Below are positions 43,310 through 49,465 of a stretch of 64,000 nt of DNA, piece after piece. This DNA comes from Dehalococcoidia bacterium (lineage in GTDB: Bacteria > Chloroflexota > Dehalococcoidia > Lucifugimonadales > UBA3495). Each line of letters starts with the position of its first letter. Within the stretch, counting starts at the first letter, position 1. The notes beneath the pieces are model-generated. The model saw nothing but the letters and a program-made list of their open reading frames with translations. It searched no databases and was not told where the DNA came from. The DNA is taken from NCBI GenBank assembly GCA_965207865.1, contig CBDBNP010000008.1, positions 973,372 through 1,037,371 on the forward strand. Direction: 5' to 3'. The translations under genes were made by a program, and so were the position numbers.

Positions 43310-46300
43310 TCAATTGATCTCCAGCCATTCGATACTGGCGCCGCACGTTCCAGTAGCTTCCGAAACGATTCCTGTAATGATGAAGTCCTCCGATTCTCCC
43401 TCGTCCATGTCGCCTATGAGTTCGACTCCGACGAAGTCGCCATCAAAGGTTCCCTCAACCTGAACGCTTCTAACATCCCTGTTTGCTGTAAGCGTTCCCT
43501 CGATGGTAATTTCGTAGCTGTCAACGCCCGGCACCAACTGCTCTCCTTCGCAACTTGTAATGGTCCCGGAAACCGCGTTTGACGCAGGCGCAGGCGCTGG
43601 TGTGGGTGTGGGTGTAGGCGTGGGCGTGGGCGTGGGCGTGGGGGCTGAAGCCGAGTCCGTGGTGGCTGAGTCGGAGTCCGACGCCTGACCGGTACCAGCG
43701 GAGTTGATGGCGGACACCCGGTAGTGTCGCGCGCTGCCAGCCGTCAACCCGGTGTGGGAGTAGCTGGTGCTGGTGGATTTGGTGTCGGCCACCAGGTCGC
43801 TCCAGCTGGACCCGTTGGTCGAAACCTCTATGCGGTAGCCGGTGATGGCAGCCCCACCATCGGACGATGGCGCCGTCCACGAGAGGTCGATCTCCGTCTG
43901 CCCATCGGCCGTGGCGGTCAGCCCGGTCGGCTTGCCTGGCTTCGTGGCGGCATCGGTGGTGGCTGAGTCGGAGTCCGACGCCTGACCGGTACCAGCGGAA
44001 TTAATGGCCGATACGCGGTAGTGTCGGGTGCTGCCAGCCGTCAACCCGGTGTGAGAGTACCTGGTGGCGGTAGAGTTGGTGTCGGCCACCAGGTCGCTCC
44101 AGCTGGACCCGTTGGTCGAGACCTCTATCCGGTAGCCGGAGATGGCAGCCCCGCCATCGGTCGATGGCGCCGTCCACGAGAGGTCGATCTCAGTCTGCCC
44201 ATCGGCCGTGGCAGTCAGCCCGGTCGGCACGCCGGGCGCTGTGGATCCGTCGCAATCCGGCAGATCGATCCTGTCAAGGTCGTTTTCTGCTACTTGCTGC
44301 AGCGTACTGGGTATGCACCCGGTGAAGTTGTTCCAGGAGATAAAAATTTTCTGCAGGTTGGACAGGTCGGTCAGTTCAATAGGTATCGATCCACTAAGCT
44401 GGTTAAATTGCAGGGCCAAGGTCATCAGGTTGGACAAGTTGCCAAATTGCGGCGGTATGGATCCGGTCACGCGGTTAAGATTAAAGTTCAGGGTTTGCAG
44501 GTTGCCGAGTCTCCCGAGTTCCGCCGGTAGCGTCCCGCTCAGGTCGTTGTCATAGAGTGACAGGGTCTTCAGTTTGGACAGATTCCCCAGTGATGCAGGT
44601 ATGGATCCACCTATTTGAGTGAAGTTAAGTTGAAGCTTTTGCAGATTACTCAAGTTGCCAAGTAAGGCCGGTATGGTCCCGGATATTTGGTGCTGATGTA
44701 GAGTGAGTTCGCTAAGTCTTGTGAGGTTCCCCAACTCCGCTGGTATAGTTCCAGTTAACGATATTGGCTCATCATCATTGGTAGATGCTCCGTAGATAGC
44801 CAGCACTTCGAGCTTGGCCAGTTCGCCCAATGCTGCGGGCAATTGACCAGTGACACGCGTGTTACCTCTGACTCGAAGTTCCAGCCGGGTCACTCGTGCC
44901 GGGCTCCCGCTTACTGTGATGCCATCCCAGCTGGTTATGAGGGTTGTTGCCGACCAATTAAGCGATCCGGAACCGACCAGTTTGTTCTTCAATCCCAGTA
45001 GGATCTCGCAATCAGAAACCAAGTTTTCGTTGTTATCCGGATTTGCGACTGCGCCATTCTTAGCACATGCCCGGTTGTCCGAAGGGGCAGCTGTCTCCGT
45101 AGTTGCAGAGTCTGTGTTGGAGGCTGGACCAGTCCCTTCCGAGTTGATGGCCGACACCCGGTAGTGGCGGGTACTCCCTGCCGTCAGCCCCGTGTGGGAG
45201 TAGCTGGTGCTGGTCGAATCGGTATCGGCCACCAGGTCGCTCCAGCTGGAGCCGTTGGTCGAGAATTCGATCTTGTAGCCGGAGATGCTCGCTTCGCCGT
45301 CGTCAGATGGCGCAGTCCACGACAAATCGATCTCAGTCTCACCGTCCGCCGTGGCCGTCAGGCCCGTGGGGGAGCCAGGGGCGCTAACGGACGCTGATAC
45401 AGTTACGGCAACGGCAACCGAGCAGTTGTTGCTCGTGTCGGTCTCATCGGTCACCGCATCGACGCAGGCGCCGTAGTAGTAGGTTCCTTGAGTAGCAGGA
45501 GCGGTCACGCTCGTGAATTCACCGCCGGTTGCGGCGGCATTCAGCCGGAACACCGAGTCGGTGCCCACCTGTGTGTCGGCGGAGGTGATTGTAGAGTCGG
45601 TGGACTGGTAGTACCGGAGGGTGGTCGTTCCGGATGCTCCACTGCCCTGGTTGCGCACCGTGGTGCTCAGGGTGAAGCGCTCCCCGGCATCCGGGGCGCT
45701 CTTGTTGACCGTGGGCGCGTCCACGACCAGGTCCGGCGCGGGCGCAGCCCCGACGCTGACTGCCACGGCAACCGAGCAGTTGTTGCTCGTGTCGGTCTCA
45801 TCGGTCACCGTATCAACGCAGGCGCCGTAGTAGTAGGTTCCTTGAGTAGCAGGAGCGGTCACGCTCGTGGATTCAGCGCCGCTCGCGGCGGCACTAAGCC
45901 GGGACACATAGTCCGTGCCCATCCCTGTATCGGCGGATGTGATTGTCGCGTCGGTGGACTGGTAATAGCGCAGCGTGGTTGAGCCAGCAGAGCCGCTGCC
46001 CTGGTTGCGCACCGTAGCGTTCAGCGTGATGCGTTCGCCCGCGTCCGGGGCGCTTTCGCTGACCGTGGGTGCGTCTACCACCAGGTCGGGCGCTGGCGCG
46101 GCCCCGACGCCGACTGCCACGGCAACCGAGCAGTTGTTGCTCGTGTCGGTCTCATCGGTCACCGCATCAACGCACGCGCCGTAGTAGTAGGTTCCGGCCG
46201 TGTCTGGAGCGGTCACGCTGACCGATTCAGCGCCGCTCGCGGCGGCATTCAGCCGGGACACATAGTCCGTGCCCATCCCTGTATCGGCGGATGTGATTGT

Positions 46301-49300: not shown

Positions 49301-49465
49301 AGTTGCGGGAGGGAGGGTGGCAAACGAGACCGAGCGAGCTGTGGGCGAAGGCGCCGACTCTTCCGTGGAATCGCCGCAGGCCAGTATAGCCAGCAGCACG
49401 AAGACGCTTAAGGTCGCCAACAACCGCGTTAAGCCAGTACTATTCAAATGATAGAACTTAATCAT
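43310..49465 (-). CDS. Giant lipoprotein: S8 subtilase with 4 FN3, 5 CARDB-like repeats, a plant-type LRR domain and an unassigned C-terminal domain
   Basis: This is a 2051-aa ORF. In order it contains:
- the lipobox LAILACGDS
- a (TATPYP)x4 repeat
- an S8 triad (IKIGVIDLGF, DHGTTVSES, GTSQASPHVAGMAAL) with a PPC-like insert (ADTDLDLFAL)
- 1 FN3 domain
- five 118-aa CARDB-like repeats (APDLVVDAPTVSESAPDAGERFTL.ATVRNQG)
- 1 FN3 domain
- an LRRNT-like cap plus about 9 LRRs (L.G.IP..LGNLSNL)
- 2 near-identical FN3 domains
- a PT linker
- a domain of about 90 aa that I could not assign. Confidence 0.9.
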   Translation of the reverse strand: MIKFYHLNSTGLTRLLATLSVFVLLAILACGDSTEESAPSPTARSVSFATLPPATSTGADDESGSDITVELNQTATPYPTATPYPTATPYPTATPYPVSVRESESTPGTVPVTPVAQTSAPSDDPTSGPSAGPTIQIAIPNKSQIEHPKVDSAINSLVERVESGEITAEEAASEAPLHRGESMGVIILLSGNVEGVVAFLENNGATNINAGDDYIEAFVPVLLLGQASEQPGVLRVDQIQPPGSTLATLPVTGQGPDVHGSKSWNDAGYSGQGIKIGVIDLGFSGLSDIMGSEVPATVEARCYTWLGQHSRSLADCTDGGDHGTTVSESVMDIAPEATLYISDPQSLSELKDSVDWMISEGVSVINHSRLWSFDGPGDGTSPLSVSPLNAIDRAVTAGIVWVNAAGNQAQGTWFKQGPFNYTTETVAGNEVKFLRFSGSQIRNSNSYLGGRLELRWEDDWGEADTDLDLFALVPGTETVSLHSIDLQSGLPGHNPVEWVRSRATFDILISHHSGPQPDWIQLVGWGPTTLTLNSSGAGSIINPAESASSGMLAVGAAPWSDVSVLSSFSSRGPAPDGRIKPDGVAANCGDTVTSTRPFCGTSQASPHVAGMAALVRQRFPNYTPAQVVSYLKNEAEQRISSPDPNNSWGHGFFLLPPVAQSPQPTPQPIAAVPGAPGNLTATGNGQTRIDLTWSAPSTDGGATITGYQIEVSDNRSSWSSLVSDTGSTGANYSHTGLTAGSTRYYRVSAINSVGAGASSNIAEGNTDAATAPDLVVDAPTVSEISPDAGERFTLSATVRNQGSGRSDSTTLRYYQSTDATITSADTEMGTDYVSRLFASDSGDESIGLTAPADQGTYYYGACVDAVSDETDTSNNCSVAVAVSVGAAPAPDLVVDAPTVSESAPDAGERITLTATVRNQGDGRSDSTTLRYYQSTDATITSADTEVGTDSVFRLNAAAIGVEFTTVTAPDTAGTYYYGACVDAVTDESDTSNNCSVAVAVSVGAAPAPDLVVDAPTVSESAPDAGERFTLNATVRNQGSGSAGSTTLRYYQSTDATITSADTGMGTDYVSRLNAAASGAESVSVTAPDTAGTYYYGACVDAVTDETDTSNNCSVAVAVGVGAAPAPDLVVDAPTVSESAPDAGERITLNATVRNQGSGSAGSTTLRYYQSTDATITSADTGMGTDYVSRLSAAASGAESTSVTAPATQGTYYYGACVDTVTDETDTSNNCSVAVAVSVGAAPAPDLVVDAPTVNKSAPDAGERFTLSTTVRNQGSGASGTTTLRYYQSTDSTITSADTQVGTDSVFRLNAAATGGEFTSVTAPATQGTYYYGACVDAVTDETDTSNNCSVAVAVTVSASVSAPGSPTGLTATADGETEIDLSWTAPSDDGEASISGYKIEFSTNGSSWSDLVADTDSTSTSYSHTGLTAGSTRHYRVSAINSEGTGPASNTDSATTETAAPSDNRACAKNGAVANPDNNENLVSDCEILLGLKNKLVGSGSLNWSATTLITSWDGITVSGSPARVTRLELRVRGNTRVTGQLPAALGELAKLEVLAIYGASTNDDEPISLTGTIPAELGNLTRLSELTLHQHQISGTIPALLGNLSNLQKLQLNFTQIGGSIPASLGNLSKLKTLSLYDNDLSGTLPAELGRLGNLQTLNFNLNRVTGSIPPQFGNLSNLMTLALQFNQLSGSIPIELTDLSNLQKIFISWNNFTGCIPSTLQQVAENDLDRIDLPDCDGSTAPGVPTGLTATADGQTEIDLSWTAPSTDGGAAISGYRIEVSTNGSSWSDLVADTNSTATRYSHTGLTAGSTRHYRVSAINSAGTGQASDSDSATTDAATKPGKPTGLTATADGQTEIDLSWTAPSSDGGAAITGYRIEVSTNGSSWSDLVADTKSTSTSYSHTGLTAGSARHYRVSAINSAGTGQASDSDSATTDSASAPTPTPTPTPTPTPTPAPAPASNAVSGTITSCEGEQLVPGVDSYEITIEGTLTANRDVRSVQVEGTFDGDFVGVELIGDMDEGESEDFIITGIVSEATGTCGASIEWLEIN
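43661..44254. repeat. 297-bp tandem repeat x2 (two near-identical FN3 modules)
   Basis: The string ggtggctgagtcggagtccgacgcctgaccggtaccagcgga starts at both 43661 and 43958. The copies encode PTGLTATADGQTEIDLSWTAPS.DGGAAI.GYRIEVSTNGSSWSDLVADT. Confidence 0.88.
44252..45080 (-). other. LRRNT-like cap plus plant-specific-type leucine-rich repeats within the giant gene
   Basis: The cap reads CAKNG..DCEILLGLKNKLVGSGSLNWSATTLITSWDGITV. It is followed by 24-residue repeats such as LTGTIPAELGNLTRLSELTLHQHQ, ISGTIPALLGNLSNLQKLQLNFTQ, LSGTLPAELGRLGNLQTLNFNLNR, and the region ends at FTGCIPSTL..DLPDC. Confidence 0.8.
45386..47155. repeat. 354-bp tandem repeat x5 (CARDB-like modules)
   Basis: The period is visible in the ORF track as shadow ORFs starting at 45621, 45975, 46329, 46683 and 47037. 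The modules share long identical DNA stretches (gcaaccgagcagttgttgctcgtgtcggtctcatcggtcac). Confidence 0.9.
49175..49246. repeat. 18-bp coding microrepeat x4, encoding (TATPYP)4
   Basis: The reverse complement reads acc gcc act ccg tat cct four times, with synonymous variation. Confidence 0.85.

Follow-up and report, generated by a model that had tools for sequence, protein, structure and literature searches.

The subtilase locus

We analyzed a 64-kb stretch of DNA from a Dehalococcoidia bacterium (the window) that carries a subtilase gene on the reverse strand, at 43310..49465. The gene runs uninterrupted from ATG to stop over 2051 codons. Pfam matched the 2051-aa product to Peptidase_S8 in two stretches (E 4.7e-18), to CARDB in five (E 6.9e-56), to fn3 in four (E 7.2e-49) and to LRR_14 (E 1.3e-15), with LRR_1, LRR_4 and LRR_8 also matching. 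These matches, alignment to subtilisin BPN' and the translation bore out the domain content claimed in the first-pass annotation (Table 1).

A response regulator gene lies 55 bp upstream on the same strand, and beyond it is a gene for a sensor histidine kinase that an insertion sequence has divided in two. The intact kinase of the orthologous locus L001 (403 aa) aligned to the window by tblastn in two parts, with aa 1-337 matching 53311-52301 at 97% identity and aa 338-403 matching 50397-50200 at 95%. The insertion sequence ends in perfect 20-nt terminal inverted repeats (50393-50412 and 52280-52299). Directly downstream of the subtilase are three ankyrin-repeat genes, whose export signals are two lipoboxes (LLIWAC/G and LTIMAC/GND) and a signal anchor. 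The kinase-regulator pair adjoining the subtilase was kept in loci L001, L002, L004 and L008, and in L001 and L002 the synteny also included the downstream ankyrin genes. In one homologue (P0057), head, CARDB and ankyrin repeats are naturally fused in a single protein. The window also encodes an SBP_bac_5 peptide/solute-binding protein. Other eukaryote-like surface proteins found in the window and related loci were collagen-RCC1, an FN3 lipoprotein, cadherin and Spond_N proteins.

Table 1 Features of the subtilase gene and its neighbors, in window coordinates (aa, residues of the subtilase)
Feature	Position	Strand	Basis
Signal peptide and lipobox (aa 1-30, LLAILAC30/GDS)	49376..49465	(-)	Read from sequence
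P/T/S-rich low-complexity tether (aa 31-139), four TATPYP repeats	49049..49375	(-)	Translation
Conserved N-terminal domain (aa 140-250)	48716..49048	(-)	In almost all family members
S8 domain part 1 (aa 255-412): Asp280, His322, oxyanion Asn407	48230..48703	(-)	PF00082, BPN' alignment
All-beta insert INS (aa 413-540, ~128 aa), family marker	47846..48229	(-)	Without BPN' counterpart
S8 domain part 2 (aa 541-660): Ser602 in GTSQASPHVAG	47486..47845	(-)	Pfam, BPN' alignment
FN3 module 1 (aa 672-765)	47171..47452	(-)	Pfam fn3, local phmmer map
Five tandem CARDB modules, 118 aa each (aa 771-1360)	45386..47155	(-)	Pfam CARDB, five stretches
FN3 module 2 (aa 1363-1455)	45101..45379	(-)	Best Pfam fn3 stretch aa 1365-1450
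Plant-specific-type LRR solenoid (aa 1462-1740)	44246..45082	(-)	Pfam LRR models, repeat register, PDB
FN3 modules 3 and 4 (aa 1745-1936)	43658..44233	(-)	Pfam
PT/PA linker (aa 1937-1961)	43583..43657	(-)	Translation
C-terminal domain CTD1 (aa 1962-2051, 90 aa)	43313..43582	(-)	Extreme C-terminus of subtilase
LuxR/NarL-type response regulator	49521..50195	(-)	Pfam Response_reg and GerE
Sensor histidine kinase, IS-split (C-part 50200-50397, N-part 52301-53311)	50200..53311	(-)	tblastn
IS element, 1907 bp, DDE transposase (50470-52299)	50393..52299	(+)	Pfam DDE_Tnp_1_6, DDE_Tnp_1, DUF772
Three exported ankyrin-repeat genes (42117-43259, 41465-42301, 40307-41425)	40307..43259	(-)	Pfam Ank models

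A conserved protease head

The lipobox cysteine recurs in homologues with complete N-termini (L001, L002, P0002, P0011, P0012, P0029, P0030, P0033, P0034 and P0039), and the subtilase is probably exported and lipid-anchored at Cys30. The tether that follows is encoded in part by an 18-bp repeat (3.6 copies, 49188-49251, tandem repeats finder TRF). The N-terminal domain has 19 invariant columns across the family alignment. Pfam and PDB sequence searches with it returned no match and detected no similarity to known subtilase propeptides. It is possibly a propeptide or a chaperone, and its residue pattern suggests an I9-like beta-alpha-beta-beta-alpha-beta arrangement.

The alignment to subtilisin BPN' placed Asp280 (GVIDLG), His322 (DHGTT), Asn407 (AAGN) and Ser602 (GTSQASP), so that the complete Asp/His/Ser triad claimed earlier was confirmed. 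In the 120-sequence set, Asp was present in 115 members (5 gapped) and His in 119 (1 gapped), while Asn and Ser were present in all 120. The subtilase is thus predicted to be an active subtilisin-type (S8) serine protease. About 125 residues between the Asn and Ser segments (411-535) were unmatched in BPN'. Twelve residues of this insert were invariant in the same set (W413, F414, F436, L454, R455, W456, W460, Q487, P495, E497, P517 and W519).

The first-pass annotation had called the insert PPC-like. Its position between Asn and Ser was upheld, and AlphaFold2 (AF2) modeled it as all-beta, with ten strands (pLDDT 89). Its fold relatives were weak, with PPC- or jelly-roll-like signals at Foldseek E>1e-3 and TM 0.3-0.5. 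No Pfam model matched the query insert itself, even at E<=10, and the PPC likeness therefore comes from homologous inserts, 10 of 42 of which matched PPC in Pfam; the insert may be described as weakly PPC-like. It is not a PA domain by Pfam, as PF02225 did not match.

A modular tail

Each CARDB module carries a Cys pair (GACVD...NNCS), and a tandem-repeat search found the underlying DNA to be an array of 354-bp units (4.9 copies, 86% matches, 45411-47157). FN3 modules 3 and 4 likewise correspond to a 297-bp tandem repeat (1.9 copies, 92% matches, 43659-44228), and the PT/PA linker contains a 6-bp repeat at 43602-43642.

The LRR region consists of about eight 24-residue repeats (LxxLxLxxNxLSGxIPxxLGxL) between a Cys-containing N-cap and C-cap. 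Its best PDB sequence matches were plant receptor-kinase ectodomains, including GSO1 (6.5e-124), FLS2 (5.7e-112) and PEPR1, at E values from 6.5e-124 to 1e-100 that are sums over repeats. The LRRNT cap proposed earlier agreed with the sequence pattern and with one PDB alignment extending over the N-cap, but no Pfam LRRNT model matched it.

CTD1 was present in 16 of the 120 set members, always at the extreme C-terminus and with two invariant Cys. AF2 modeled it as a small six-stranded beta-sandwich (pLDDT 94). Foldseek gave only weak matches (E>1e-3, TM 0.3-0.5) and no clear relative, in keeping with the earlier description of an unassigned, Cys-bracketed domain.

Family size and tail diversity

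A search with the full-length query gave 421 matches at E<=1e-10. We analyzed a set of 120 sequences, comprising 117 database matches, two MAG orthologues and the query. The head (N-terminal domain, S8 domain and insert) was common to all 120, whereas 104 distinct tails were found. CARDB occurred in 95 members, FN3 in 92, LRR in 81 and all three in 56; the LRR and CARDB shares are biased upward because the matches were retrieved with the full-length query. With an INS profile, clusters represented at 50% identity numbered 1695 at E<=1e-3, 581 at E<=1e-10 and 78 at E<=1e-30; in distant members, the same head was fused to PPC, RCC1, Big_13, dockerin or LRR. Head identity falls as low as 49% across the family. 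The nearest genomes were Dehalococcoidia MAG chromosomes, with heads 96% (OZ247426.1), 79% (OY763410.1) and 61% (OZ244723.1) identical to the query.

None of the matches listed carried a source name, NCBIfam gave only partial, sub-threshold matches, and targeted literature searches found no paper describing the family. The earlier suggestion that the arrangement belongs to no described family thus held with regard to name and description. The arrangement itself is not singular, being one permutation in a large family, of which 56 of the 120 set members combine LRR, CARDB and FN3.

Tail turnover at the same locus

Five syntenic genes (the window, L001, L002, P0034/L004 and P0052/L007) had five different tails. 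The DNA of the window and L001 was colinear at ~89-94% identity, except for an extra 354-bp CARDB unit (five copies in the query, four in L001) and a replaced 3' cassette. This cassette encodes CTD1 in the query; in its orthologues L001 and L002, an unrelated 72-aa domain, CTD2, takes that place, so that the family has at least two alternative small terminal domains. The terminal domain has thus been exchanged between strains with 96% identical heads. In P0030, P0033 and P0007, the heads were ~81% identical to the query and the tails were wholly rearranged. With 86-92% DNA identity among them, the repeat units of the tail offer a substrate for recombination, which suggests that recombination reshuffles the tails.

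Comparison with known systems

The architectures of prokaryotic serine proteases were surveyed in 2008 (PMC2605481). That list includes Subt-(CARDB)9 (Geobacter sulfurreducens NP_954260.1), Subt-fn3, Subt-(fn3)3-(PKD)3, Subt-PPC and PA inserts, and fusions to LRR do not appear in it. The subtilase shares with such multidomain secreted S8A enzymes the Asp-His-Ser order, export and the tandem CARDB and FN3 modules after the protease. It differs from them in the conserved ~128-aa beta module that interrupts the catalytic domain, the plant-type LRR tails, the N-terminal lipobox with its P/T tether, and the strain-level tail shuffling with alternative terminal domains. We regard the family as an undescribed variant of known multidomain subtilases.

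PA-domain subtilases include pyrolysin, cucumisin/SBT3, C5a peptidase and the lactocepin type. In them, too, an accessory domain separates the His/Asn segments from the Ser segment; it lies close to the substrate cleft and can affect how substrates enter. The insert here is instead all-beta with weak PPC- or jelly-roll-like signals, and gave no PA match. Mycosins (MycP) of type VII secretion are membrane-anchored S8 proteases that keep their N-terminal extension uncleaved. Compared by general description, they are a precedent for a conserved N-terminal domain that is not a removable propeptide, but they belong to an unrelated lineage, are anchored by a C-terminal helix and have no long tail.

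The LRR region resembles the plant ectodomains of GSO1, FLS2, PEPR1 and PSKR1 in its 24-residue consensus with LSGxIP and its Cys-containing caps. Unlike the plant receptors, it has only about eight repeats, lacks a transmembrane helix and kinase, and is embedded in a bacterial protease. Its N-cap also lacks the CxWxGVxC Cys pair (SWDGITVS here).

Function of the subtilase

We consider the best reading to be a protease that is tethered at the cell surface and directed to its targets by the tail, and hold this to be somewhat more probable than all others together. The subtilase would be exported, lipidated at Cys30 and held off the membrane by the flexible ~110-aa P/T-rich tether. INS directly follows the oxyanion Asn and would flank the substrate cleft on its S1 side. 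The tail, with 13 beta-sandwich modules and one LRR solenoid, may bind extracellular protein or glycan ligands, and the head would cleave these ligands or their neighbors. The adjacent two-component system probably controls expression, and the exported ankyrin-repeat lipoproteins encoded next to the subtilase are likely its functional partners. Since the triad is strictly conserved and the binding tail is variable, target-directed proteolysis at the cell surface, as first proposed, is a reasonable inference. The N-terminal anchor speaks against this reading, as it would place the protease nearest the membrane with the tail outward, an unusual geometry for presenting an enzyme.

An unlikely alternative is a nutritional exoprotease. 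It would cut off its own N-terminal domain, thereby leaving the lipid anchor, and break down protein outside the cell, whether in organic matter (dissolved or particulate) or in host matrix, so that the amino acids can be taken up. The tail would then provide generic substrate or matrix binding and spacers, as in Subt-PPC, Subt-PKD, Subt-FN3 and Subt-CARDB enzymes, and fusions of S8 to CARDB, fn3, PKD and PPC have long been known (PMC2605481). The strongly conserved N-terminal domain at the usual propeptide position and the SBP_bac_5 gene fit this alternative, as does the proposal that sponge Chloroflexi degrade dissolved organic matter (PMC6306507). However, the propeptide role is putative given the PDB search result, and generic digestion leaves unexplained the extreme strain-level tail turnover. 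Nor does it account for the repeated occurrence of plant-type LRR solenoids, which bind protein ligands, or for the fact that a dedicated two-component system and exported ankyrin-repeat proteins stay linked to the gene.

We think it still less probable that the subtilase serves mainly for adhesion or host interaction, as a eukaryote-like protein whose tail attaches to host cells or evades them, with the protease serving only its own maturation or shedding. Binding-type modules and linkers form the tail (aa 661-2051), which accounts for ~1390 of the 2051 residues, the neighbors and one fusion carry ankyrin repeats, and in sponge symbionts LRR and ANK proteins have been tied to host interaction (PMC6306507, PMC8163846). 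Yet one head type is joined to many unrelated tails. Conservation is also highest in the head, whose catalytic residues and many insert residues are invariant down to 49% head identity, and this argues for selection on the cleavage of external substrates.

An assembly or gene-calling artefact, a chimeric ORF from mis-joined repeats, is highly improbable: the gene does contain long tandem DNA repeats (354 bp x4.9; 297 bp x1.9) and differs in CARDB copy number from the closest genome, but the gene and both flanks are unbrokenly colinear with an independently assembled 4.7-Mb Dehalococcoidia MAG chromosome, the frame stays open over 6153 nt, dozens of homologues of equal length lie on contigs up to several Mb, and the repeat copies are resolvable because they are only 86-92% identical. 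The 2051-residue gene is real, and the chimerism raised as a possible objection in the first-pass annotation was not found.

Host association and implications

Sponge-associated Chloroflexota have been reported to be rich in proteins with ANK, LRR, TPR and FN3 modules (PMC6306507, PMC8163846). The locus draws on the repertoire of eukaryote-like modules found in sponge symbionts (ANK, LRR, TPR, FN3, cadherin), the same phylum has been reported as FN3- and ANK-rich, and the subtilase clusters with exported ankyrin proteins. Those reports are domain counts, in which a protease-headed family and modular shuffling are absent. The gene content is typical of animal (sponge-type) symbionts and suggests that the bearer, and with it the window, may be of sponge or other host-associated origin.

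Judged from these sequences, the family is a large, unnamed one in uncultured Dehalococcoidia that combines a conserved protease head with an ever-reshuffled tail. If the N-terminal domain is a cleaved propeptide, maturation would free protease and tail from the lipid anchor, and surface tethering would then hold for the zymogen only. Under the preferred reading of a tail-targeted surface protease, recombination among near-identical repeat units would diversify target specificity between strains.

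A split subtilisin-like domain on a predicted multidomain lipoprotein

The subtilase gene was found to run for 2051 codons without interruption. Translation and Pfam bore out both the length of the open reading frame and the module content proposed in the first-pass annotation, and the contig index held no record of the exact same protein. We took as evidence for family S8 a PF00082 score above threshold, the order Asp-His-Ser in the motifs D(S/T)G, HGT and GTSxAxP, and an oxyanion Asn. PF00082 scored 65.9 bits (cut-off 21.8), with Peptidase_S8 split in two stretches. Asp280 (GVID280LG), His322 (DH322GTT), Asn407 (AAGN407) and Ser602 (GTS602QASP) align to D32, H64, N155 and S221 of subtilisin BPN', which confirmed the complete Asp/His/Ser triad claimed earlier, in canonical motifs and together with the oxyanion Asn. 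By its sequence, the product clearly belongs to peptidase family S8, subtilisin-like S8A.

Read from the translation, the N-terminus combines a positively charged n-region with a hydrophobic core and the putative lipobox LLAILAC30-GDS, in which ILAC30 fits a relaxed form of the pattern [LVI][ASTVI][GAS]C. The lipobox Cys is kept in homologues with full N-termini. A P/T/S-rich tether of about 110 aa with four TATPYP repeats follows. In the tail, which comprises all modules after the catalytic head, Pfam placed five CARDB stretches (PF07705; 187 bits, E 6.9e-56) and four fibronectin type III (FN3) stretches (PF00041; 164 bits, E 7.2e-49), all above the gathering thresholds. The PT linker and the Cys-bracketed 90-aa domain at the far end could be read directly in the translation, as had been described.

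The tail also contains a leucine-rich repeat (LRR) region of about eight 24-residue repeats with the consensus LxxLxLxxNxLSGxIPxxLGxL, which fit the definition of the plant-specific LSGxIP class. The best solved-structure matches were ectodomains of plant receptor kinases, e.g. GSO1, FLS2 and PEPR1. The first-pass annotation had described an LRRNT-capped LRR. The plant-type repeats stand, but the cap is a sequence pattern (ILLGLKNKL...LNWS...SWDGITV) plus an alignment to PSKR1 beginning at query residue 40, with no LRRNT match in Pfam.

Coordinates of features in the window and at related loci.
Feature	Sequence	Position (strand)	Description
Subtilase gene	window	43310-49465 (-)	2051 aa
PT linker and C-terminal domain CTD1	window	43310-43650	replaced by CTD2 in L001
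Ankyrin-repeat genes	window	40307-43259 (-)	three consecutive genes
Histidine kinase, split	window	50200-50397 and 52301-53311	split after residue 337
IS element	window	50393-52299	1907 bp
FN3 protein	window	53606-54883 (+)	425 aa, lipobox LLAFASAC|GG
Bat-like operon	window	32291-40146 (+)	MoxR-type AAA ATPase, VWA/BatA, BatD, TPR-SH3
Collagen-RCC1 protein	window	14590-17502 (-)	970 aa
Second subtilase	window	5708-11632 (-)	1974 aa
Segment colinear with L001	window	55005 to 39687	
3' end of subtilase gene, with CTD2	L001	12718-13030	
Histidine kinase, intact	L001	5302-6513	
FN3 protein	L001	3733-5007	beside kinase gene
Pair of family members	L006	3772-14678	1081 aa and 2225 aa

A beta insert and a conserved N-terminal domain

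Residues from about 411 to 535 have no counterpart in BPN' and are inserted directly after the AAGN segment; where the insert lies with respect to the active site we infer from this alignment. The alignment of 120 heads revealed a dozen invariant insert residues, namely W413, F414, F436, L454-R455-W456, W460, Q487, P495, E497, P517 and W519. The predicted structure (pLDDT 89) is a ten-stranded all-beta module, with weak Foldseek matches of jelly-roll type (CBM6, CBM35, CBM4 and gingipain adhesin; E>=1.7e-3, TM 0.27-0.36).

The insert had been called PPC-like, which is plausible from its homologues. Ten of 42 homologous inserts individually matched Pfam PPC (PF04151; best E 1.5e-5), and P0132, a homologue with two heads, scored 39.8 bits in total against a gathering cut-off of 25.9, with the best stretch within its first insert. 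The window's own insert, on the other hand, had no Pfam match even at E<=10, and hhalign of the insert with a small three-sequence PPC alignment was not significant. The PA domain is an accessory domain carried inside the catalytic domain of other subtilases, where such inserts have been catalogued (PMC2605481). It was rejected here, as PF02225 matched neither the whole protein nor the isolated insert at E<=10.

Residues 140-250 are also conserved across the family. They occupy the position of subtilase propeptides, and their residue pattern is compatible with a beta-alpha-beta-beta-alpha-beta unit. A relationship to known subtilase propeptides was not supported: Pfam gave no match to the I9-type propeptide (PF05922) at E<=10 and a profile search of the PDB returned nothing relevant. 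Were the domain cleaved off, the mature enzyme would part from its N-terminal lipid anchor.

One head is combined with many tails

Searching with the full-length protein retrieved 421 proteins at E<=1e-10, none of which has a name. We mapped a set of 120 members (117 listed database matches, the orthologues at the loci L001 and L002 in other genomes, and the query) with the query's own segments by phmmer. The head, consisting of the N-terminal domain, the first part of S8, the insert and the second part of S8, was common to 120/120; three further listed matches were without it. The tails rearrange FN3, CARDB and LRR blocks, with as many as 19 copies of CARDB and nine of LRR, and 104 distinct tails were found. 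LRR was present in 81 members, CARDB in 95, FN3 in 92 and all three in 56, shares that are biased upward because the set was retrieved with a full-length query. Head identity within the family falls to 49%. The homologues P0030, P0033 and P0007 have heads 81% identical to the query and fully rearranged tails.

A profile of the insert, searched against 1.84 billion cluster representatives, matched 1695 at E<=1e-3, 581 at E<=1e-10 and 78 at E<=1e-30. Distant members sampled from these had the same split S8 head with PPC, RCC1, Big_13, dockerin, FN3 or LRR tails. The first-pass annotation had not recognised the arrangement as a described family. This holds in that the members are unnamed and targeted literature searches found no description of the family, but the protein is no singleton.

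Two homologues, P0132 (1091 aa) and P0111 (1655 aa), have two complete heads (S8 plus insert) per polypeptide. At L006, in another genome, two LRR-tailed members are separated by one small unannotated gene and surrounded by SLH-, RCC1- and Tricorn-domain surface proteins. This arrangement points to local paralogue expansion.

Tails and termini differ at the same locus

Genes at the same locus were recovered from five genomes, in each case beside a two-component system and a MoxR-VWA-BatA-BatD-TPR cluster, and carry five different tails.

Heads and tails of the subtilases at the same locus in five genomes.
Gene	Head identity to window	Tail
Window	reference	FN3-CARDBx5-FN3-LRR-FN3x2-CTD1
L001 (OZ247426.1)	96%	FN3-CARDBx4-FN3-LRR-FN3x2-CTD2
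L002	79%	FN3-LRR-CARDBx3-FN3-CARDB-FN3x2-CTD2
P0052 (locus L007)	63%	FN3-LRR-FN3x2-CARDBx5-FN3-CARDB-FN3x2-CTD2
P0034 (locus L004)	56%	FN3x2-CARDBx7-FN3-LRRx2-FN3x2-CTD2

At the genome level, the nearest relatives proved to be three MAGs of chromosome scale, all carrying the label Dehalococcoidia bacterium. Comparison with the best of them, the L001 chromosome, colinear at mostly about 89-94% DNA identity (less in some stretches of the ankyrin genes), revealed three differences: the IS element is present in the window only, the window has one additional 354-bp CARDB unit, and a different sequence takes the place of the final ~430 bp of the gene. DNA repeats inside the gene are 86-92% identical, and at this level of identity they should be resolvable in an assembly. 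An assembly chimera, which had been raised as a possibility for so long an open reading frame, is therefore very improbable, because colinearity extends across the gene and its flanks.

The replaced terminus involves two alternative domains, both always at the extreme C-terminus. CTD1, the window's terminal domain (89-90 aa, two invariant Cys), was found in 16/120 members of the set; CTD2 (72 aa, SCSVDLVV...WKIEEVG) was the commoner, in 36/120. In L001 the PT linker and CTD1 are replaced by the unrelated CTD2 within otherwise colinear DNA, which, judged from the two sequences, looks like cassette exchange. Diversification of the C-terminus by a diversity-generating retroelement (DGR) was rejected, as no template repeat was found in the window and the scanned open reading frames include no RT; in a blastn search of the window (word size 7), the gene's 3' 390 nt matched, apart from itself, only the adjacent FN3 repeat.

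CTD1 is modelled as a six-stranded beta-sandwich (pLDDT 94). Its Foldseek matches in the PDB were weak and of E-set type, including the TMEM106B lumenal domain, a transglutaminase barrel and the PF1109 CARDB domain; the best had E 4.5e-3 and TM about 0.5, and PF1109 ranked 3 and 11 (E 0.02-0.03, TM about 0.5). A degenerate CARDB was considered as one candidate identity, though hhalign of CTD1 with a profile of the protein's own CARDB units was not significant, and CTD1 had no sequence match in Pfam, NCBIfam or the PDB. A word-indexed search of 5.8 billion proteins with CTD1 alone or its alignment returned two short unannotated fragments and missed the known CTD1 carriers too. We rejected a C-terminal sorting domain (T9SS CTD, LPXTG or PEP-CTERM), as Pfam and NCBIfam gave no match and the sequence is acidic, not hydrophobic.

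Genomic context

A LuxR-type response regulator gene lies directly upstream of the subtilase on the same strand. L001 and L002 have the cognate histidine kinase in one piece; in the window it is divided by the IS element, which encodes a DDE_Tnp_1_6/DUF772 transposase and is bounded by perfect terminal inverted repeats of 20 nt. The FN3 lipoprotein gene beside the kinase is kept in L001. Directly downstream of the subtilase, in a synteny kept in L001 and L002, are the three ankyrin-repeat genes. Two of the products have a lipobox and one a signal anchor, indicating that they are extracytoplasmic; a long P/T-rich linker is also present in at least one of them, ANK3. In the homologue P0057, the head, CARDB and ankyrin repeats are fused in a single protein. 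The operon beside the ankyrin genes is of the Bat-like aerotolerance type, and the same neighbourhood was seen at the P0034 locus.

The window encodes a second, unrelated giant exported subtilase, with an unsplit S8 without insert, N-terminal FN3-like modules, a weak PPC match, a proprotein-convertase P-domain, three Calx-beta and four FN3 modules. The collagen-RCC1 protein, another eukaryote-like surface protein, has a lipobox-like stretch (LFVSGC) at its N-terminus and combines a region of collagen triple-helix repeats with seven RCC1 repeats; at related loci there are genes for cadherin and spondin-N proteins. Eukaryote-like surface proteins have been reported to be enriched in sponge-associated Chloroflexota (PMC6306507, PMC8163846), and the gene content suggests a possible host (sponge) association of this organism. 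Searches on the MAG and sample accessions OZ247426, OY763410, OZ244723, SAMN17524326 and SRR13587055 led to no paper or host.

Predicted function and significance

A multidomain exported subtilase is a familiar kind of protein. Fusions of S8 to CARDB, FN3, PKD and PPC have long been catalogued, and a fusion to LRR is absent from that catalogue (PMC2605481). The anatomy described here is well established, and the family is a large one without a name; the function is predicted. The gene represents an undescribed S8 subfamily with a beta insert in the catalytic domain, a conserved N-terminal domain, and shuffled LRR/CARDB/FN3 tails with alternative termini.

We somewhat favor, as the likeliest reading, a lipid-tethered surface protease targeted by its tail. 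The lipid anchor would tether the subtilase at the cell surface, the tail modules would direct the catalytic head to targets, and recombination among near-identical repeat units would vary the binding tail. A nutritional exoprotease that is released from the cell and whose binding modules are generic is a possible but unlikely alternative. An adhesin with a protease for self-processing only appears less likely still; alongside the large tails, the 120 heads retain Asn and Ser in 120, His in 119 and Asp in 115, the rest being gaps, not substitutions.

The tail-targeted surface protease can be extended, more speculatively, to a recombination-driven, hypervariable repertoire, in which swappable LRR, CARDB, FN3 and tip cassettes would retarget one head to host or neighbour surface proteins. 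We regard as rather doubtful such a "programmable" system of animal-associated Dehalococcoidia, which together with the exported ankyrin lipoproteins would edit host recognition or matrix molecules.

The unnamed S8 subfamily is recognisable by its conserved beta insert, and it spans hundreds of sequence clusters, enough to assign it a profile and a name. One head on more than 100 tail permutations, together with the same-locus differences between close strains, makes it a natural system for protease retargeting by binding modules. Finding plant-type LRR modules in Dehalococcoidia is also relevant to how that LRR class arose and spread. Should the MAGs prove to be from sponge symbionts, this family would offer a concrete enzymatic candidate for editing host matrix or host recognition, and would add an enzyme to a mostly non-enzymatic repertoire of "eukaryote-like proteins".
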